A stretch of DNA of 37,505 nt. Source: a virus (taxonomy: Duplodnaviria; Caudoviricetes). Position 1 is the first letter of the stretch. Each line of letters starts with the position of its first letter. Below are positions 388 to 31,100 of the stretch, one piece after another. The stretch lies in the IMG/VR virus record IMGVR_UViG_3300044674_002913, positions 1 through 37,505 of that record; one strand, written 5' to 3'. The position numbers were made by a program, and so were the translations under genes. The notes below the pieces were generated by a model. That model had not been told where the DNA came from and ran no database searches. It saw only the letters and a list, made by a program, of their open reading frames with translations.

Positions 388-795
388 ATGAAACATTGTA
401 CAAGCGTATGGAGAGATCATCCTGGGATCCACAGTGTTGATATTAATAAATTATCACCAATGGGTTGGCATGCAGACAACCGTTGGTACTGGCGTGATCT
501 CCCACGTATTATAGATCAAGGCCTATGGTATCCAGTGTTGTATTATAAATGTACACTTGAATGGTGGAATTCCAGCTTCTTTAAACGCAAAGGCGCACAT
601 TCCATGTGGTCACATATCAATCCTCCAGTAGTTAATGATGACGGCATGATCTGGGGCGTGTATATGGGAACAAATAGGTTACAATGTATTAAGTTTATGT
701 CGTATACCAGTGTAGACTGCATAGAATGCCAAGGCCAGGCCCAACTTATTGAACTAGGTATACACCTCAGAGACAAGGATCCGCTTCATGCTTGA
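388..795 (+). CDS. Hypothetical protein, ParB/Srx-like motif
   Basis: VYMGTNRLQCIKFMSYTSVDCI resembles the ParB-N G-x-x-R motif. Confidence 0.45.
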   Translation: MKHCTSVWRDHPGIHSVDINKLSPMGWHADNRWYWRDLPRIIDQGLWYPVLYYKCTLEWWNSSFFKRKGAHSMWSHINPPVVNDDGMIWGVYMGTNRLQCIKFMSYTSVDCIECQGQAQLIELGIHLRDKDPLHA

Positions 796-1252
796 CAGCT
801 ATAAAGAGACCTGGTTTATATTAACATTAGTTGATATAACTGAAACGGGAGATCTCCGCGGATCAGGCAAGACACGCAACCAGCAACGTAACTTTGAAAC
901 ACTGCAACAATGTGTAAGTATGCTAGCACAGCCATGGAGTTTAAATTCTCCAATGAAAAGAGAATTTTTAAGTCTACACAAAAGATTAAAAGACACTGGA
1001 ACGACGTTTGGTAGCAAGCATGATTTTACACAAGAAATTCTAAGTAATCTAAATGTATGGACATGGCGCTTTGGTATAGAAAGAATTGGAGTATTTGGCG
1101 GCCCGCTTGGAGATGCTGGTATTCTACAAAATACACTACAGGATATACCTATAATTAGTGGACTAGATGAAAACTGTGTATTAGACCCAGCTGTCTTTAG
1201 TGTACGAGACGAAGATCGTAATATACTATTAATACAAGAGAACGTATTGTAA
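788..1252 (+). CDS. Phage hypothetical protein
   Basis: 154-aa ORF overlapping the previous stop; coding-like codon usage. Confidence 0.7.
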   Translation: MLDSYKETWFILTLVDITETGDLRGSGKTRNQQRNFETLQQCVSMLAQPWSLNSPMKREFLSLHKRLKDTGTTFGSKHDFTQEILSNLNVWTWRFGIERIGVFGGPLGDAGILQNTLQDIPIISGLDENCVLDPAVFSVRDEDRNILLIQENVL

Positions 1253-1361: not shown

Positions 1362-1610
1362 ATGGCTGATATTGAAAAAGAAAGTTTAGAAGCACACGTA
1401 GAATTGTGCTCTGAGAGGTATAAATCTCTGCATGACAAATTAGATGCAGTAAACTTACGTCTTGAAACCCAGGACAAGACATTGACTGCAATTCATAATC
1501 ATATGATAAGAAATGAAAACGGCCGTAATAAGCAAGTTATGGCTTGGGGTGCTGGTATAATCGCAAGCCTAGTAGCCGCTGTAGCCTATCTAGTTACACA
1601 ACAACTCTAA
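1362..1610 (+). CDS. Small coiled-coil protein with C-terminal TM helix (XhlA/holin-like architecture)
   Basis: Start moved to ATG 1362 (MADIEKE); heptad-like region then hydrophobic WGAGIIASLVAAVAYLV. Confidence 0.6.
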   Translation: MADIEKESLEAHVELCSERYKSLHDKLDAVNLRLETQDKTLTAIHNHMIRNENGRNKQVMAWGAGIIASLVAAVAYLVTQQL

Positions 1611-1618
1611 ATCTTTAC

Positions 1619-1624
1619 TAAATA
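1619..1624 (+). promoter_or_regulatory. T4-like late promoter core TAAATA
   Basis: TAAATA recurs just upstream of structural genes (1253, 1619, 3321, 10271, 12839, 21332, 33054) and as full TATAAATA at 23631, 24660 and 27485. Confidence 0.65.
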
Positions 1625-1628
1625 CTGT

Positions 1629-1946
1629 ATGCGTTTTAAAGACATAACAAACGAAAGTATTATTCCTCAGTATGACGAGATTGAGTTCGATCTCGAAGAA
1701 GGCATGGCGTGGGCAAAGCGCGGCGGTAAAGTAGTCCGCAAGTTTCGTTGCACAGGAGGCAGACGTAAAGGACGTATTGTAGCCAAACCTGCACAGTGCT
1801 TTGCCGCTCCAGATATTAAAAAACGCAACAAGTTAAAAATTACCAAAGCAAGACTTGGTAAGCGTATGACACGAAAAGCACAACGCACAAAACGAGTAAA
1901 TCCTGCTAGTAAACGTGTAGCAGCATTGAATAAGACAAGTAGGTAG
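1629..1946 (+). CDS. Basic putative head internal/core protein
   Basis: N-terminal MRFKDITNE, acidic propeptide-like segment ending LEE, then very K/R-rich domain. Confidence 0.6.
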   Translation: MRFKDITNESIIPQYDEIEFDLEEGMAWAKRGGKVVRKFRCTGGRRKGRIVAKPAQCFAAPDIKKRNKLKITKARLGKRMTRKAQRTKRVNPASKRVAALNKTSR

Positions 1947-5533: not shown

Positions 5534-6544
5534 ATGAAAAAACTAATTACAGCTCTTACTCTAATGATTGCTATGATCTTTAGTATTGGGACTGCAAGTG
5601 CCGACATCCAAGTTAACAAATTGTTTTCGCCAAATCCCCAAAATGTTAAAGCTAGGTTAATCATTGACATCGGTCCATACTCGTATCACAGTTGGATATT
5701 AAAAGGTATCCAAGATGGAACCTTTGCAAAATACGGCGTAGATGTCGAGTTTGTTGGCACAGGGCCTGGCAGTGTAAAGACTGGTCTTGCAATTACTGCT
5801 GGAAAGGCAGAACTAGGATACCAGGATTATAGTGGCGTAGTTCTTGTTAATAGCAAACAAGCTACTCCAAAGTTTAAGGCTATCTTTGTCATCGATGACA
5901 AAGTACAGGATGGAATTTGGTCATTAAAGGGATCTGGAATCAACAAATTTGATGATCTAGATGGTAAAACTTTTGGAGATTTTATTTCCGGAACTACCAA
6001 ACTTCTGTTGCCAGGTATCACCAAGGCTAAAGTTACGCCAGTTAACATGTCATTTTCCGCTCTAGTTCCAGGGCTAGTAACTGGGAAAGTTGATACAATT
6101 GGTGGATATTTAACAACAACTAAATTTAACCTACAGAAGGTTGGAATTAATGAATACAACGTTATCAAGTTAAGCGATGCATTTCCAATGGGAGTTAGTC
6201 GTGTAATTACTGTAAACAGTGATTGGGCTAATGCTAATCCAAAAGCAATAATTGGAATTAGAAAAGCAATTAGAGAGTTACTGCCAAACTTTATTAAAGA
6301 TCCAAAGTCTAGTGTAGACACTCTTTCTGGACCACTTGTTTCTACCCAAGAAAAACGTGACCTTGAACTAGCCCGTGCAAAGTACGCCATAGAAGAACTT
6401 GTTTGGACTAATAATGTTAAAGTTAATGGGTTTAACAATGCAAAAGTACTCGGGCCACGTCTAAAAGAGTACACTGATTTGCTTGTATCTAGGGTTGGTT
6501 TACCCAATCGTCATCCAGACAACACATATTTTGATCTAGACTGA
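5534..6544 (+). CDS. ABC transporter substrate-binding protein, NMT1/THI5 (NitT/TauT) family
   Basis: Signal peptide (ASA/D); GTFAKYGVDVEFVGTGPGS and GINKFDDLDGKTFG motifs. Confidence 0.85.
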   Translation: MKKLITALTLMIAMIFSIGTASADIQVNKLFSPNPQNVKARLIIDIGPYSYHSWILKGIQDGTFAKYGVDVEFVGTGPGSVKTGLAITAGKAELGYQDYSGVVLVNSKQATPKFKAIFVIDDKVQDGIWSLKGSGINKFDDLDGKTFGDFISGTTKLLLPGITKAKVTPVNMSFSALVPGLVTGKVDTIGGYLTTTKFNLQKVGINEYNVIKLSDAFPMGVSRVITVNSDWANANPKAIIGIRKAIRELLPNFIKDPKSSVDTLSGPLVSTQEKRDLELARAKYAIEELVWTNNVKVNGFNNAKVLGPRLKEYTDLLVSRVGLPNRHPDNTYFDLD

Positions 6545-7284
6545 TGATTCATACTAGTATAACTGTTGCAACAGTTATAGTAGTTTGGGAACTAGTATTC
6601 AAAGGAGGGTATATTCCAGGATTATGGGATATTATAAAAACCTTCTTTGAATTACTAGTTAACCCAGACTTTTTGTTTAATTTATGGACTAGTATATGGC
6701 GGTTGGGCCTGGGCTGGACTATAGGCATGGTGCTAGGAACAGTCGTTGGAATAGCCATGGCCATAAATGTTCACACACACAAACTTTTAATGCCACTAGT
6801 AAGTTGCCTATTTCCTATACCTAAAATTGCACTATTGCCACTGTTTATTGTATTACTCGGCTTGGGCGAGGCTAGTAAGGTTATAACTATCTTTATTGGT
6901 GCATTTTTCCCCAGTATTATTACTGCATATAGTTCTGTAATACGCACACCTGGTGTTTTTACAGATGTTACTGTTTCTTGTAAAGGTAACTTATGGACAG
7001 TAGTAAAATATGTTGTTATTCCATATAATCTTCCCACTATAATACAAGGATTTAGAACAAGTGGTAGTCTGGCTCTAACACTGTTAGTTGCCGCAGAGAT
7101 GCTGGGTGCACAACACGGACTGGGCCACTGGATTTTTATGACAGGCGGAGAAATGGAATTTGCAGAAATGTTTGCTGGACTTATATGGTTAAGTTTAATA
7201 GGGCTAACTATTAACTGGGGTGTGGAATATCTCAGACGCACAGTGTGTTACTGGAGTACACTTGGAAAAGGTGCACAAATATGA
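6544..7284 (+). CDS. ABC transporter permease, TauC/SsuC family
   Basis: Multiple TM helices; PIPKIALLPL, LGLGEASK and VAAEMLGA.GLG motifs. Confidence 0.9.
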   Translation: MIHTSITVATVIVVWELVFKGGYIPGLWDIIKTFFELLVNPDFLFNLWTSIWRLGLGWTIGMVLGTVVGIAMAINVHTHKLLMPLVSCLFPIPKIALLPLFIVLLGLGEASKVITIFIGAFFPSIITAYSSVIRTPGVFTDVTVSCKGNLWTVVKYVVIPYNLPTIIQGFRTSGSLALTLLVAAEMLGAQHGLGHWIFMTGGEMEFAEMFAGLIWLSLIGLTINWGVEYLRRTVCYWSTLGKGAQI

Positions 7285-8426
7285 TTTTAAATGCAGATAA
7301 GTTTGGTTACTATACAGTCGGCGATTTAAAAACATACAGCAAAGTAGAAGCAATAGAATGGCAACAACGTACTGGGCACTTCCCAGAGTGGAACTTTAAC
7401 AAGGAAATCTTTGATACAGTTGATTGGCAAACAGAGCCAGCAATTGAGTTATGGGATTTGTATAAAGCAAGAGCGAGGCAAATTAGAGATGCGTACGACT
7501 ATGTGGTATTATTCTATTCTGGCGGTAGTGATAGCGACAACGTATTACGTAGCTGGATAGATGCAGATTGTAAAATAGATGAGATAGCCTGCTTCTGGAA
7601 TTTGGAAGCAACCAAAGATCCACAAAGTTTTATGTGTGCAGAAATACAAAATGTGGTATTGCCTGTTGTAGAAAAACTAAAGCAAACACATGAGTTTGAG
7701 TTTCGTAAAATTGATGTAAGTCAATTAACTATCGACTTTTTAGCCAAGAATAAATTTGATTATAGTTACTACAGTAATCACAGTATTAGTCCTAATAATA
7801 TTGTAAAGGGTATGTTTAGAGAAACAATACCCGCTTACCAACAACTAATAGACAGTGGTAAACGTGTTTGTTTTGTGTGGGGATTTGAAAAACCTCAATT
7901 AGGATATGATGATAGAGGTGTTTATGTTCAATTTGTAGACACCATGGATAATTGTGTAGGCCCCTACAGCCAGCTGAATTATACAAATGGGTGGTATGAT
8001 GAACTATTTTATTGGACCCCCGACTTTCCTGAGATAGTAGTTAAGCAGGCACACATTGTACAGCGGTTTGTGGAAACGTGTGATATCCCAGAGTTTTACA
8101 GCAATAAGTCAACACCCTATGGATACAATAACAAGTTAATGCAATGGGTCACACACGATGCAGTCAAAAGGATAATCTATCCAAGGTGGGATCCAAACAC
8201 GTTCTGCAATGGTAAGTCACCCACTGGCGCAAGTAACTATCTAGTGTATAGTCCTAGAGATGCATGGCTATGGAATAGTAATCTAGTAGAACGTGACACC
8301 ATGCATAGTATTATAGCTCAAACTACGAATAAAGTTGGCGAATATTGGAAAACAGACAATAATTCTAATAGCAGTAGTCTTTATAAAGGGCATATCCAAA
8401 AACATTACATAAGGAAAATATTATGA
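7281..8426 (+). CDS. PP-loop ATP pyrophosphatase-family protein
   Basis: YSGGSDS PP-loop; ATGA overlap places the start at 7281. Confidence 0.7.
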   Translation: MILNADKFGYYTVGDLKTYSKVEAIEWQQRTGHFPEWNFNKEIFDTVDWQTEPAIELWDLYKARARQIRDAYDYVVLFYSGGSDSDNVLRSWIDADCKIDEIACFWNLEATKDPQSFMCAEIQNVVLPVVEKLKQTHEFEFRKIDVSQLTIDFLAKNKFDYSYYSNHSISPNNIVKGMFRETIPAYQQLIDSGKRVCFVWGFEKPQLGYDDRGVYVQFVDTMDNCVGPYSQLNYTNGWYDELFYWTPDFPEIVVKQAHIVQRFVETCDIPEFYSNKSTPYGYNNKLMQWVTHDAVKRIIYPRWDPNTFCNGKSPTGASNYLVYSPRDAWLWNSNLVERDTMHSIIAQTTNKVGEYWKTDNNSNSSSLYKGHIQKHYIRKIL

Positions 8427-10000
8427 AAAACGTTGTTATTGTCGGGGGTGGATTTGCTGGCTGGTATACAGCCTTAGCTTTAAATCAAAATTTTCCTGAT
8501 TATAATATAACAGTAATTGACAGTAAAGATCATCCAAGATTAGGAGTTGGCGAGACATTAGGATGGAGCGCACCTTATGACTGGAAAAGACTACTACACC
8601 TAGGAGATGATCGTATTCTTATGTGGGAAACTGGTTCCATATATAAGTATGGAATATCAGCAACTAATTTCTATCAGGATAATACCAGTTATAGTTACGG
8701 AAAGTTTTTTAATCTCAAAGTAAAAAGTCTTGCGAGATTCTTTAGTGAATTTACCTATCCTGAATATTATGAGCCTTGGAGTGTGCGACCTGGTGATGCG
8801 GGATTGCAACAAATTTGGTTTAATCTAAATAATGCCACTGATAAGACATTTGATGATTATACTTATGAGTTGAATGAAGCAAGTTTTTTTACACGTTCCA
8901 ATAAAGCACCGTATACCCTAGAGAATGAATACGTATTGAGAACACAAGAAGGTTGGAGTTATCATATTGATGCTGAAACTTTTGTGCAATTTTTAAAATC
9001 TAAATGTAATAACGTAACACATAGGGAATCCACGATTACGGACGTAGTTAAACAGAATTCTAATATAGAATACATCGTAACCGACTTAGATGATCATATA
9101 CACGCCGATATGTTTATAGATTGCAGTGGATTTCAAAGAGTACTAGTGAAGCATATGCCAGAGATGGAATTAACTGACTGGCATCTCCCTACAACCAATA
9201 GTGCGTGGGTGTGTCCTACTCGGTACCAGGATCCGCAATCAGAGATGTGTGGCGGCACCCAAATATACGGCGAGGAATGGGGTTGGCGGTTTAAAGTAAA
9301 CTTATATCACAGGGCTGGAAATGGATGTGTATTCAATAGTACAGATACAGATCATGATATAGTACGACAGCATATGCAAACTCTCACACAAGGTAGACAG
9401 ATTACTGAACCTAAATTAATACAATGGAAACCTGCATATGTTAAAAAACCATGGGTAGGAAATGTATTAGCCTTGGGAATCGCTAGTTATTTTATAGATC
9501 CTTTTGATGCTCCTACGTTTGATGTGCATAGCCGCAATCTAGAAGATTTAATTAACGGCGTAGAGCGTGAAGAGTTTAATACTAAAGCTAATATAATAAC
9601 TCAAGAGAGAAACTATAGGTTGTTATATAACTTTAGCACTAGTAAGCGCAGTGGAGTATTTTGGGACCAACAGAGAGAATTGTTTACAACGGAAGCAGAG
9701 AACACGTTCATACAAATACTAGAGAATCAGGTGCCTGGCATAGATAGCCGACTTAGTCATAATTGGTATCAGATGTATTATAGAATGTGTAATGCTAGTG
9801 GGTTTGATCGCAGTAAAGTAAATATCGATATTGACATTAGTAAAGATGATCAGGATATGGCTCAAGCATTCTTTCAATATAATAAAGCTAGAAACAAATA
9901 CATAGAAACTCAACCGTGGCCTAATTATTATGAATGGCTAAAAGAAAATAGATTTAACGGAAAAACACACACTCAAGTATTAGAAAGAATAATGAAATGA
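8423..10000 (+). CDS. Tryptophan halogenase-like flavoprotein (PrnA family)
   Basis: GGGFAG FAD motif, LGVGET, YHIDA, ADMFIDCSGF, FIDP motifs. Confidence 0.85.
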   Translation: MKNVVIVGGGFAGWYTALALNQNFPDYNITVIDSKDHPRLGVGETLGWSAPYDWKRLLHLGDDRILMWETGSIYKYGISATNFYQDNTSYSYGKFFNLKVKSLARFFSEFTYPEYYEPWSVRPGDAGLQQIWFNLNNATDKTFDDYTYELNEASFFTRSNKAPYTLENEYVLRTQEGWSYHIDAETFVQFLKSKCNNVTHRESTITDVVKQNSNIEYIVTDLDDHIHADMFIDCSGFQRVLVKHMPEMELTDWHLPTTNSAWVCPTRYQDPQSEMCGGTQIYGEEWGWRFKVNLYHRAGNGCVFNSTDTDHDIVRQHMQTLTQGRQITEPKLIQWKPAYVKKPWVGNVLALGIASYFIDPFDAPTFDVHSRNLEDLINGVEREEFNTKANIITQERNYRLLYNFSTSKRSGVFWDQQRELFTTEAENTFIQILENQVPGIDSRLSHNWYQMYYRMCNASGFDRSKVNIDIDISKDDQDMAQAFFQYNKARNKYIETQPWPNYYEWLKENRFNGKTHTQVLERIMK

Positions 10001-23456: not shown

Positions 23457-23606
23457 ATGAAACATTTAAAAGAAACGGGCTATACATATTTCGCCCATAT
23501 GCGTAGAGCATTTTGTATAGCCTTTGTCCTTGTTGTCCATGGTATTGTGCCGGGCATTTGGACAGACAAAGCAACTCAAATGCTTTGTAATCCTGACACA
23601 GAATAA
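23457..23606 (+). CDS. Small membrane protein, DUF6356-like (49 aa)
   Basis: Not in ORF track; MKHLKETGYTYFAHMRRAF...VVHGIVPGIW. Confidence 0.6.
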   Translation: MKHLKETGYTYFAHMRRAFCIAFVLVVHGIVPGIWTDKATQMLCNPDTE

Positions 23607-23607
23607 G

Positions 23608-23638
23608 TTGACAAAACTCCTAAAATAGTATATAAATA
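23608..23638 (+). promoter_or_regulatory. Overlapping sigma70 and T4-late promoter for tmRNA
   Basis: TTGACA-17 bp-TATAAA; the -10 also reads TATAAATA. Confidence 0.7.
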
Positions 23639-23644
23639 AGATAC

Positions 23645-24025
23645 AATTTGATGATACGAATTGAATACAGAACTGGACCGGGGGGCAGTACCCCGCGCCT
23701 CCACCATAAACACATGAGGATATAATGAATTGGGATTGGCATTGGATTAGTTGGTTTAAAGGAACTCCTTTTCAATGGGGTGAATTTAGATTAAACAGTG
23801 GGAATCCTTATAAAAGTTATAGATTTGGGCCATTACTTATTCGTGTGTTTATGAGGGGGGCGAACTAGGATCGACAGGCTGGAATAGATGAGTGGAGAAT
23901 TGTCGGATGACTCCGTTATTGGTCAATTTAGTAAATGCAAACGATAATGCAAACTATGGAGATTACGCTTTAGCAGCATAATCTTTCGGGGTTCGGTGGG
24001 TTCCTAGCAACAGAATACCCACCAC
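23645..24025 (+). ncRNA. ssrA: Circularly permuted two-piece tmRNA (alphaproteobacterial type); outer ends approximate
   Basis: Acceptor piece CGGGG-GGCAGTA-CCCCG-CGCCTCC-ACCA ends 23706; coding piece starts GGGGGCG at 23856 (G3:U70); tag ANDNANYGDYALAA* at 23937-23981; 3' hairpin GGTGGG/CCCACC. Confidence 0.93.
23725..23868 (+). CDS. 47-aa Trp-rich ORF in the tmRNA intervening segment
   Basis: GAGGA SD; MNWDWHWISWFKGTPFQWGEFRLNSGNPYKSYRFGPLLIRVFMRGAN*. Confidence 0.5.
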   Translation: MNWDWHWISWFKGTPFQWGEFRLNSGNPYKSYRFGPLLIRVFMRGAN

Positions 24026-24142
24026 TTAACATAATGTGGTAAATATATCACATTTTTATAATTACTTTAAGATAGGACGTAGAACCACTGTCTACATAAC
24101 TCTAACTAAATAATTGTGAAGTATTAAAAGTAGACAAATTAA

Positions 24143-27937: not shown

Positions 27938-28867
27938 ATGAAGACACTCTTCTTAGAAGACACCTTGCCATTTCAAGGACTTTGTGAACTCGTTGCTGAT
28001 GCAGAGGGATTGTTTGAAAAAGAGGGACTTAAAGTTGAATGGGTAAAACATAATGACAATCTTGAAGCTATTACTGATACCCAAATCATTAACCATCATG
28101 GTTCGGATCCGTTTAATGGTCATGGAGCCGCGTTTGAACAGGGTGAGGCGGATATGTATAACGCCTGTGAATGGGGCAACTACTGTCGTGCTCAAGATTC
28201 TAAAACAGGCCTGGTAATAGGAAGACGGTCTATTGTTACCTATGCTGCTCTTGTTGTCCGTCCCGAGTCAAATATTTATACTCCACAGCAGTTTGCAAAT
28301 CGCCAAGTTGGCGTTCCTTTCTTCTATGGCACTCATTACCTAGCCCTTCAGATGCTTGAAGGATTTATGACACGGGATCAGATTAGCCTATGCAAGACTT
28401 CTCCTATGTTACATATACGTTATCAAGCAATGATGCGCGGAGAAGTCGATAGTGTGATCCTAGTTGAACCCTATATTTCACTTGCAGAAAAACAAGGATG
28501 TCGTATTATCTGCTCGGCATTTTTTCACGGAACAGAAGTAGCATCTGCTAAAGTTGATTCTGAGACCTACGGCATGTTTAATCGTGCAGTACGAGAAGCG
28601 GTTAAAAGAATTAATGCTAATAAAAAACAATATCTTCAGTACTTTATAGATTCTTACAAGGATGTTGATCCTCTTATTTCTATGTTATCGATTAATGATT
28701 TACCAGAAAGTCGTCTTGTTGTAGTAGACCCTGCGCCTATTCCAGCAAAAGAACTAGAACAAACAGCAAATTGGATTAAGAGTTGGGGTATGCTAGAAAA
28801 CACTGATAATTCAATAGATTTAATTAATATAGATATAAATGGAAATTCAAAGGCTCAAGGGAAATAG
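27938..28867 (+). CDS. NMT1/SsuA-type binding-protein fold, no signal peptide
   Basis: VADAEGLFEKEGLKVEW, LVVRPESNI, GEVD..ILVEPY. Confidence 0.8.
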   Translation: MKTLFLEDTLPFQGLCELVADAEGLFEKEGLKVEWVKHNDNLEAITDTQIINHHGSDPFNGHGAAFEQGEADMYNACEWGNYCRAQDSKTGLVIGRRSIVTYAALVVRPESNIYTPQQFANRQVGVPFFYGTHYLALQMLEGFMTRDQISLCKTSPMLHIRYQAMMRGEVDSVILVEPYISLAEKQGCRIICSAFFHGTEVASAKVDSETYGMFNRAVREAVKRINANKKQYLQYFIDSYKDVDPLISMLSINDLPESRLVVVDPAPIPAKELEQTANWIKSWGMLENTDNSIDLINIDINGNSKAQGK

Positions 28868-28871
28868 ACAA

Positions 28872-29672
28872 ATGGCTGATATTCTCGAGATCAAAAGCGT
28901 CTCCAAAACCTACAATGCCGATGGCGATAGCCCGGTAAAGGCGCTGAATGGTGTTGATCTGAATATTGCAGAAGGGGAGTTCGTCTCGATCATCGGGCCG
29001 TCAGGCTGCGGAAAGTCGACCCTGTTCAATATTATCGGTGGGCTGATAGACGATCATGACGGTGAAGTGCTGATCGACGGCCACGAAGTAGACGGCGCCC
29101 ATAAGGATGTCGGCGTCGTGTTTCAACAAGAATCAACATTTCCCTGGAGAACGACCCTGGACAATGTGGCCTTTCCACTTGAAATCGAAGGGATCGATAA
29201 GGCGGAGCGGGAAGAAACCGCTCAGAAGTTCATCAAGCTGGTTGGCCTTGAAGGGTTCGAGAGTCATTTCCCTGCGCAACTCTCCGGCGGTATGAAGCAG
29301 CGGACGGCTGTTGCCAGGACACTGGCCTATGAGCCACGTATCATGCTGATGGATGAGCCGTTCGGCGCACTGGATGAACAGACACGGATGCTGCTGGGCG
29401 ACAAGATGCTCGAAATCTGGGCAGCCTTGAACCAGACGATGCTGTTGATCACGCATAATATCACGGAGGCGGTTCAGCTTTCGGACCGGGTCGTCGTCAT
29501 GTCGTACCGGCCTGGGATCATCAAGGAAATCATTTCGATCGAACTGCCACGGCCACGGACATCGGAAGTCATTGCGACCCCGGAATTCAGCACATATGTC
29601 GGAAAATTGTGGACTCTGCTGCGTGAAGAAGCATCTCGCGGTATGCATGACACAGAAAAATCTCTTTTTTAG
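28872..29672 (+). CDS. ABC transporter ATP-binding protein, TauB/SsuB family
   Basis: Walker A GPSGCGKS, LSGGMKQR, MDEPFGALD, H-loop ITHN; markedly GC-richer than neighbours. Confidence 0.95.
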   Translation: MADILEIKSVSKTYNADGDSPVKALNGVDLNIAEGEFVSIIGPSGCGKSTLFNIIGGLIDDHDGEVLIDGHEVDGAHKDVGVVFQQESTFPWRTTLDNVAFPLEIEGIDKAEREETAQKFIKLVGLEGFESHFPAQLSGGMKQRTAVARTLAYEPRIMLMDEPFGALDEQTRMLLGDKMLEIWAALNQTMLLITHNITEAVQLSDRVVVMSYRPGIIKEIISIELPRPRTSEVIATPEFSTYVGKLWTLLREEASRGMHDTEKSLF

Positions 29673-29684
29673 TCCCAAAAACGG

Positions 29685-29729
29685 TAGACAAACCATGTAT
29701 CTGTGTTATTATGGTTATAGTTAGAAAAC
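29685..29729 (+). promoter_or_regulatory. Early promoter plus conserved leader (second copy)
   Basis: GG-TAGACA-16 bp-TATTAT; 20-bp identity with 26963-26982. Confidence 0.7.
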
Positions 29730-29974: not shown

Positions 29975-30004
29975 CAAAAAAGTGCTTGACATTTTGGATT
30001 TTGC

Positions 30005-30130
30005 TCAGGGTCGTGAAGTAGAAGACCCTGACACCTAAGGGGGAGAATGGTACCCGAATCACAGCTAACGTCAATTAGCAGTGTAGGTGTTGACGCACCG
30101 AGGCCTGGTTCGATTCCAGGTACCCTACCT
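30005..30130 (+). ncRNA. tRNA-like structured RNA (T-arm plus complementary loops)
   Basis: T-arm CCTGG-TTCGATT-CCAGG; loops CGTCAA and TTGACG are complementary; ACACCTA/TAGGTGT and AGGGT/ACCCT stems. Confidence 0.65.
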
Positions 30131-30238
30131 AATTTAGCAGCTATGCTAGCTGACGGCCGCAGTATAGGGCCAAGGGGCAAGGCGCCCCCAAGTGCTGTGG
30201 AGCGGGTAGAAATAGCAATTACACTATAGTACTCGGGG

Positions 30239-30270
30239 AGAAAAGCTCACACAATGTGGGCTTTTTTCTT
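30239..30270 (+). terminator. Rho-independent terminator
   Basis: AAAAGCTCAC-ACAAT-GTGGGCTTTT followed by T tract. Confidence 0.8.
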
Positions 30271-30290
30271 GAATTATCGGTTAGAACTGG

Positions 30291-30670: not shown

Positions 30671-30698
30671 GTATATATAGGAAATGAGGAGCAAGCAA

Positions 30699-31100
30699 AT
30701 GGCTGTTTACAAGATTTGGCAGATTAACTTAACGGATGCGGAAATTGACACCATTAACGCCACTGGCGATCACGGTGCCGTTCCTAAGAACATGCTGCGT
30801 ATGAAGATTGAGATGTCCTTTGGCAAGCCCGTTGGCGACCTGGTTAAGGAAGCCTTTGAGAAAGGCTACTACGAGCATGTTAGCAACATTACCGCTGACA
30901 GCCTAGAAGGTGTTTTCCACGTTGGTAACATGGGTCCTGAAGAGAACATTGAGCGTTTTATGCCCATGCATAGCCTGAGCGTTGGTGACTTGGTGCTGGA
31001 CGAGAACGGCATGTACCACATGGTTGCTAGTTTTGGTTTTGATGCAGTGAACGAACTGAACATGGTACCATGGTCTGCACTGAACATGGAGATTGCGTAA
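30699..31100 (+). CDS. YodL-like domain protein
   Basis: SLEGVFHVGN...MHSLSVGDLV...GF motif; GAGGAG SD. Confidence 0.6.
   Translation: MAVYKIWQINLTDAEIDTINATGDHGAVPKNMLRMKIEMSFGKPVGDLVKEAFEKGYYEHVSNITADSLEGVFHVGNMGPEENIERFMPMHSLSVGDLVLDENGMYHMVASFGFDAVNELNMVPWSALNMEIA

Follow-up and report, generated by a model that had tools for sequence, protein, structure and literature searches.

A 37.5-kb virus fragment, which was analysed at its full length of 37,505 nucleotides and is referred to here as the window, carries an RNA gene that is real, under selection and not catalogued so far; in design it is a minimal variant of T4 RNA C with the loops swapped. The unit appears, from its sequence, to be a phage gene for a tRNA-shaped RNA of ~90 nt, in which two neighbouring hairpins with complementary 6-nt loops occupy the places of the anticodon and variable arms. 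The reading of its function that we favour, at a probability of roughly 0.36, is that copies of this RNA pair with one another and that the resulting dimers or small rings present tRNA elbows, acting as decoys for host tRNA-binding proteins; within this reading, the decoy role has the least support.

Layout and genomic setting of the RNA unit

The window encodes a class Ia ribonucleotide reductase, virion and lysis proteins and ABC transporter parts, as well as a permuted tmRNA of alphaproteobacterial type at 23604–24072, from which we infer that the host is probably an alphaproteobacterium. A related record (G012, 50.6 kb, completeness estimate 15%) suggests a phage genome of ~340 kb. Two small ORFs, neither assigned to a known family, flank the gap that holds the tRNA-like element. 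ARAGORN predicted no tRNA in the window, the tmRNA was the sole match in an Rfam scan of the whole window, and a focused Rfam scan over the element gave tRNA-Sec as its top match, with 16.4 bits (cut-off 47). An earlier sequence-only reading of this DNA had suggested such a scan, together with kinship to the phage manA motif or to Y-like RNAs; the element is without any family match, and neither the manA model (RF01745) nor that of Y-like RNA (RF02553) matched it. Among other features of the window, the tmRNA carries, compared with the Rfam model, a long insertion in its intervening segment; it also has a promoter-like site of its own, and a tryptophan halogenase-family gene lies at 8423–10000. 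The ABC transporter parts occur at two sites (5534–7284 and 27938–29672), one with an NMT1/THI5-like binding protein and a permease and the other with a second binding protein and an ATPase; at the ATPase end the GC content is higher (about 0.50 vs 0.40) and identity to locus L507 is 93.6%.

The conserved unit is 30038–30130. The sequence-only reading had drawn it as 30005–30130, of which 30005–30037 has no counterpart in the two closest homologous loci (L462 and L507). The unit and its flanking signals are as follows (L numbers denote loci outside the window).

29685–29712, + strand: sigma70-like promoter (10/12 matches), the nearest upstream consensus site
30005–30031, + strand: 8-bp hairpin upstream of the RNA, window-specific and outside the conserved unit
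30038–30044, + strand: 5′ strand of the acceptor-like stem, pairing with 30121–30127
30045–30059, + strand: stemless D-loop with GG at 30049–50 and the 3′ end YGAAT
30060–30083, + strand: hairpin 1, in the anticodon-arm position, 9 bp with one A·A mismatch and the loop CGTCAA (30069–74)
30084–30085, + strand: 2-nt linker TA between the hairpins, the same in the window, L462 and L855
30086–30099, + strand: hairpin 2, in the variable-arm position, 4 bp with the loop TTGACG (30090–95)
30100–30103, + strand: GARG linker 5′ of the T stem (GAGG in the window, GAAG in L462, GAGG in L855)
30104–30120, + strand: canonical T arm
30121–30130, + strand: 3′ strand of the acceptor and the tail ACCT
30135–30225, + strand: module B, a second, separate conserved structured RNA
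30245–30267, + strand: terminator-like hairpin and T run, identified by eye and retained in L462, L507 and L688

When the sequence was re-read, all motifs of the earlier reading were found where it had placed them, including the canonical T arm, the loops of the two hairpins, which are exact complements, AGGGT at 30007–11, the hairpin 30005–12/30024–31 and AATGGTA at 30046–52. Two long-range pairings built on them did not hold: the proposed stem between ACACCTA (30031–37) and TAGGTGT (30084–90) has a pair probability of 0.01 and is not conserved, and a stem between AGGGT and ACCCT is likewise not conserved. AGGGT is held in its local hairpin at a probability of about 1.0, as the same reading had allowed, and the acceptor role that it was offered falls instead to the covarying strands 30039–44/30121–26. 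That local hairpin (30005–30031, fold probability about 1.0) is missing from L462/L507, which have coding sequence in its place. The view that there is no normal cloverleaf was right in that the element has neither a D stem nor an anticodon arm, yet a tRNA-like junction exists. A GGG/CCC D stem was rejected, as it is absent in L462 and L855. The acceptor has an A·A mismatch at its end and a G·A mismatch adjoining the T stem, acceptor and T stem together amount to 11–12 bp, and CCA is not encoded in the window, L462 or L855.

The terminator-like hairpin, which is absent from the list of a terminator scan, would close a unit made up of the tRNA-like RNA and module B. The surroundings of a TTGACA at 29986–91 are promoter-like but lack a consensus −10, and the 8-bp hairpin at 30005–31 starts where the −10 would fall, as if a promoter had been overwritten. 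A look-up of sequencing runs listed none for this stretch, a result that speaks neither for nor against its transcription.

A pair of hairpins with complementary loops is by itself not unusual: 9 of 30 Markov resamples of 37.5 kb had one pair with complementary 6-nt loops. The same pair with a T arm behind it occurred in 0/30 resamples, and a strict descriptor of the arrangement was satisfied by 0/337 distinct T arms from loci fetched blind to loop sequence. A loose loop-complementarity descriptor was dropped; it passes 62 of these 337 T arms, and therefore a 5-bp loop match alone means nothing. Folding energy was weak for 30000–30135 (z −1.44) and strong for 30000–30275 (z −3.74).

Covariation of stems and loops in homologues

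The two closest loci, L462 and L507 (nhmmer E values against the window of 4.7e-37 and 8.6e-44, respectively), belong to the same phage lineage, have neighbour genes in common with the window and carry an identical RNA, with similarity to the window spanning about 30039–30275. Because they came from a metagenome pattern scan using the loop hexamers (at least 117 loci among the matches listed), they are uninformative on loop covariation, and the close sequences that are distinct number three (the window, L462 = L507, and L855). L462 preserves 24 of the 25 stem pairs: 14 are unchanged, 5 are changed on both sides and 3 on one side while still pairing, 2 are mismatched in the window only, and 1 is a G·A mismatch common to both. 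As many pairs were kept in 0/200,000 simulations under uniform substitution and 5/200,000 under transition-biased substitution. The changes are spread over the molecule, with one compensatory change (A–U to C–G), one G·U to G–C change and the retained G·A mismatch in the acceptor, which in L855 has only 5 bp; two compensatory and two consistent changes in hairpin 1, whose upper stem has a pair probability of 0.98 in the window fold; and two compensatory changes in the T arm, for which L855 has another stem and the same loop. Hairpin 2 is identical in L462, and the TGGT and YGAAT of the D-loop are conserved in L462 and L855.

Two simpler accounts, a decayed ordinary tRNA and conservation imposed by protein coding, were weighed against these data. 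ARAGORN labels the L462/L507 element 'tRNA-???', the window copy has two extra mismatches, and an ORF crosses the RNA in L462/L507. Against both accounts stand the compensatory changes in four stems and in the loop–loop pairing described below. Furthermore, the 15 differences between the window and L462 fall 3/6/6 over codon positions 1/2/3, and the D-loop differs in length by a frame-breaking 2 nt; with no third-position bias and this length difference, coding is not behind the conservation and was ruled out as its cause. The two accounts thus appear, from the alignment, to be largely refuted, and we consider them scarcely credible.

Evidence on the loops comes from a search in which they played no part. 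A covariance model (R1) was built from two sequences with the loop–loop pairs left out and, when run on 15 related virus records, matched one of them (G012, 36.8 bits, E 2.7e-10). The G012 copy, L855, is located near a homologue of the window's downstream gene. It retains the GAAT, TA and GAGG linkers and the T loop, while every stem is altered. Its loops, TTGCAG and CTGCAA, are again exact complements, hairpin 2 reading GGTT-CTGCAA-AACC with a matching loop 1, and four of the six loop–loop pairs are changed on both sides relative to the window; given four changes per loop, complementarity arises in 1 of 1215 arrangements by simple arithmetic. In a four-sequence alignment that was fitted to the model stems, and in which L843 came from the loop pattern and is not independent, 24/24 cells of the loop–loop pairing (the kiss) pair, across three loop versions. 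The predicted kiss is therefore backed by direct covariation evidence. The homologue comparison that the sequence-only reading had called for accordingly yielded compensatory changes in stems and loop–loop pairs alike, and its view of the element as a tRNA mimic gains support from covariation in the acceptor, both hairpins, the T stem and the kiss. The idea that the loops imitate Val/Asp anticodons or the −35 promoter hexamer was discarded, since the L855 loops differ. Beside this copy, a structured element lies directly upstream (1589–1704, minus strand), with no match among the loci compared, and an HD_4-domain hydrolase gene lies downstream (691–1188, minus strand), with a possible bearing on alarmone control.

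Conservation extends to the T loop, to GG in the D-loop, to the linkers of the junction and to the loop pairing, but not to acceptor sequence or length, CCA or the loop letters. Such a pattern speaks for an RNA that imitates the tRNA elbow in shape and would be neither charged nor decoding, rather than for the decoy for anticodon nucleases put forward from the sequence alone. Anticodon nucleases recognise a specific exposed 7-nt anticodon loop. A phage-borne tRNA outline and anticodon-like triplets in some of the loop hexamers speak for such a decoy, but there is no 7-nt anticodon loop: the loops have 6 nt, exist in three sequence versions with letters free to change, as L855 demonstrates, and are predicted to be paired, all of which makes the anticodon-nuclease decoy very unlikely.

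Possible pairing between copies and candidate functions

Secondary-structure prediction does not uniformly return the structure drawn here. For the window copy, ViennaRNA prefers another fold (−28.1 vs −21.3 kcal/mol, a gap of 6.8 that excludes the energy of the kiss and the elbow), with a T-arm pair probability of about 0.25; hairpin 2 of L855 is weak (pair probability 0.26), and of the close sequences L462 alone folds as drawn. A rod model using assumed helix constants places the stem bases of the two hairpins 28–34 Å apart at inter-helix angles of 120–180°, a gap larger than the 2-nt linker can reach (at most 21 Å), and the model therefore slightly favours pairing between copies over pairing within one molecule, which it allows if there is a ~90° kink or if the lower 4 bp of hairpin 1 melt.

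The main competitor is a monomer whose loops kiss in cis, locking the arms into a compact, nuclease-resistant decoy. Loop covariation fits cis and trans pairing alike, and in-molecule kisses of neighbouring hairpins, as in the SRP Alu domain and the lysine riboswitch, count for a cis monomer; so do the long bulged arms of RNA C, L328 and a gut-phage family, which could bend back, and the bulge of hairpin 1 in L855 and its A·A mismatch in the window. However, each loop has exactly 6 nt and thus none to spare, all three close sequences have a 2-nt linker, and in hairpin 1 the covariation of the lower pairs indicates that they form. We regard the cis monomer as possible, if somewhat unlikely.

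Under the favoured reading of pairing between copies, transcription would begin at the upstream sigma70-like promoter, and tRNA-processing enzymes would release the RNA from the longer transcript. The D-loop GG and the T loop would then build a tRNA elbow, and copies would pair in trans through their loops, since the 2-nt linker does not reach far enough for the loops to meet head-on over 6 bp in cis. The sealed loops may confer nuclease resistance, and the RNA could titrate a host factor that reads the elbow or the acceptor arm, for example a tRNA-targeting defence or stress protein. A precedent for the assembly step is provided by phage-borne manA RNAs of <200 nt, which assemble via intermolecular kissing loops as seen by cryo-EM (bioRxiv 10.64898/2026.07.01.735769). 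The manA pentamer has two interfaces, as opposed to one loop pair here, and the tRNA outline is a trait of the window RNA. Both are short and phage-borne, kissing-loop assembly being an observation for manA (RF01745) and a rod-model argument for the window RNA, and the comparison is an analogy only. If intermolecular pairing is true, a tRNA-shaped building block would join the short natural RNAs that self-assemble.

A further possibility is that the unit acts as a cis signal at which RNase P and RNase Z cut, thereby releasing module B or completing the mRNA upstream, the excised piece being otherwise without a role. Module B, for which Rfam has no family, consists of a 5-bp hairpin with an RCTA loop, a helix 30157–64/30193–200 and a variable inner hairpin; the first hairpin covaries, while in place of the inner one L462 has an unrelated hairpin and L688 retains almost nothing. 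It was considered as a hammerhead, twister, pistol or HDV-like ribozyme and as a c-di-GMP riboswitch, none of which gave an Rfam match, and, in a comparison with the consensus motifs of these classes, the CTGA motif is lost in L462/L507. A processing signal is in keeping with the position of module B, which lies 3′ of the tRNA-like RNA in L462/L507 (585–681 in L462) and begins within about 8 nt of it in the window, L462 and L507, with the overlap of the unit with an ORF end in L462/L507, with the L855 unit closing another structured element, and with an acceptor plus T stem of the length given above. Module B also occurs without the tRNA-like RNA in L688–L690 (about 1450–1535), after a lipoprotein gene. 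In G012, the tRNA-like RNA (L855) and module B are about 30 kb apart in the same record, which counts against a processing signal, as do a covarying kiss that processing would not need and the annotation of RNA C as a stable RNA; this role is distinctly unlikely.

Resemblance to tmRNA was considered in the same way. The tRNA-like domain of tmRNA has in common with the window RNA an acceptor, a T arm and a stemless D-loop, and the G-rich 5′ strand and the GA on both sides of the junction also recall the window's own tmRNA, 6 kb upstream, so that the RNA might mimic this domain, bind SmpB and tune ribosome rescue. However, the window RNA has kissing hairpins and no mRNA-like domain, no alanine identity pair (G3·U70, in the 7-bp register), no CCA, no tag reading frame and no match to the tmRNA model, and D stems are present in L843 and the gut-phage family, which makes a tmRNA mimic improbable in our view.

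Nor does the element fall into the remaining classes with which it was compared. As a tRNA (RF00005) it lacks the cloverleaf, the 7-nt anticodon loop, the D stem and the model score. The bacterial Y RNA YrlA (RF02553) is a non-decoding RNA with tRNA-like D and T loops, permuted arms and a Ro-binding stem; in contrast, the window RNA has the arms in normal order and shows neither the Ro-binding stem nor the model match of YrlA and other Y RNAs. Among the 41 ORFs scanned in the window, a 37.5-kb fragment, none matched Ro60/TROVE. The stable RNAs of phage T5 (RNAI, III, IV, 1, 2, 2H and 3) are likewise stable and partly tRNA-like with function unassigned, and 0/7 of them contain GTCAA or TTGAC.

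Likeness to T4 RNA C and other carriers

The closest known system is T4 species 1 RNA (RNA C, rnaC; NC_000866, 70908–71046). RNA C has the 6-nt loops TTGACG and CGTCAA, the window's hexamers in swapped order, with the second loop hairpin directly 5′ of its T arm, and it also has an acceptor with conserved mismatches and no anticodon. It therefore shares with the window RNA an acceptor stacked on a canonical T arm, the lack of an anticodon arm, and two hairpins with covarying complementary 6-nt loops, the last of these being a feature defined from the present alignment and not from the literature. The two differ in loop order, in length (139 nt, as against about 90), in the long, multi-bulged first arm of RNA C and in location, RNA C lying within a tRNA cluster and the window RNA having no tRNA beside it. 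Alignable homology is limited to the T arm and the loops, BLAST of the window found no rnaC, and R1 scores RNA C (17.3 bits) below an ordinary T5 tRNA (23.2 bits); common descent is therefore unsupported, and what the comparison establishes is a shared design.

The kiss is maintained in RNA C itself, being 98.9% paired in 15 Tevenvirinae sequences, a set obtained via the loop pattern (5) and via annotation or BLAST (10) that leaves out the non-homologous L687 and the near-duplicates L593, L694, L697 and L703. One pair is changed on both sides, from A–U to G–C, in two Klebsiella phages, and the divergent phage L702 retains the kiss in part only. Most members have two U·U mismatches in the acceptor. 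RNA C is annotated as a stable RNA and is described as of unknown function (PMC3014915, 2010; PMC9697503, 2022; PMC12685909, 2025) and as a transcribed late RNA on the basis of a Northern blot (PMC9697503). In the literature covered, which lay mostly outside subscription journals and the 1970s papers on RNA C, we found no description of the kiss in RNA C or in the present family, and six supplementary files of PMC10690425 (files 1, 2 and 4 aside) contain none of six motifs.

Pattern scans revealed further strict carriers. L328/L504 and L843/L853 have the window's loop order and lie in tRNA clusters, with L843 having Klebsiella-type loops, and L586 has the T4 loop order and encodes CCA. The L586 RNA (about 575–740), which is not a T4 RNA, has a promoter-like site of its own and precedes a repeated leader and a further structured stretch. 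In RNAs of the RNA C design, selection retains the T arm and the junction together with a 6-bp loop–loop pair that covaries, but neither the loop letters nor the acceptor; the present family is a minimal, 90-nt version with two natural loop codes, those of the window and L855, that do not cross-pair. A broader proposal, which we put forward as doubtful, is that the window RNA is the smallest member of a widespread, uncatalogued phage class that includes RNA C, whose head-to-tail rings or dimers, assembled through covarying 6-bp kissing loops, would form a multivalent array of elbows soaking up tRNA-sensing defence or stress proteins of the host.

A loose loop pattern gave 122 loci in viral contigs, of which 0 resembled the window; the RNA was found at 0/80 loci near relatives of the neighbour protein (30684–31100); and when 50,697 phage records were searched by BLAST with the elements of the window, L462, L855 and L328, only short or T-arm matches or none were obtained. 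In cellular genomes (120 of about 130 loci), 0/78 T arms fitted the strict descriptor, and the loci were by eye ordinary tRNAs or chance matches. A broader covariance model (R2) found no further member in 50 related records, all of them fragments: it matched 5/50 records at nine places, of which the five inspected were ordinary tRNAs and the other four had identical scores.

A gut-phage family, found blind to the loops, has the GTCAA/TTGAC core within larger loops. As its link to the present RNAs rests on the identical core alone, it provides weaker evidence of kinship, and may or may not belong with them. This gut RNA is abundant (L214, L218, L317, L341, L363, L235, L240 and many duplicates) and has a full D arm, a long bulged arm and a covarying acceptor, with TGTCA/TGACA loops in L235/L240 and 0 Rfam matches for L214 and L248. 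L355, L404 and L435 carry a tRNA-shaped RNA in which GTCAAG could pair with a CTTGAC hairpin loop, forming a pseudoknot and not a kiss. A second tRNA-shaped phage family comprises eight loci (L211, L227, L249, L271, L277, L288, L293 and L299), in which a conserved insert, AAGTCCGA...GTAGGC, replaces the anticodon arm; the two of these loci that were scanned against Rfam gave at most a weak tRNA match.
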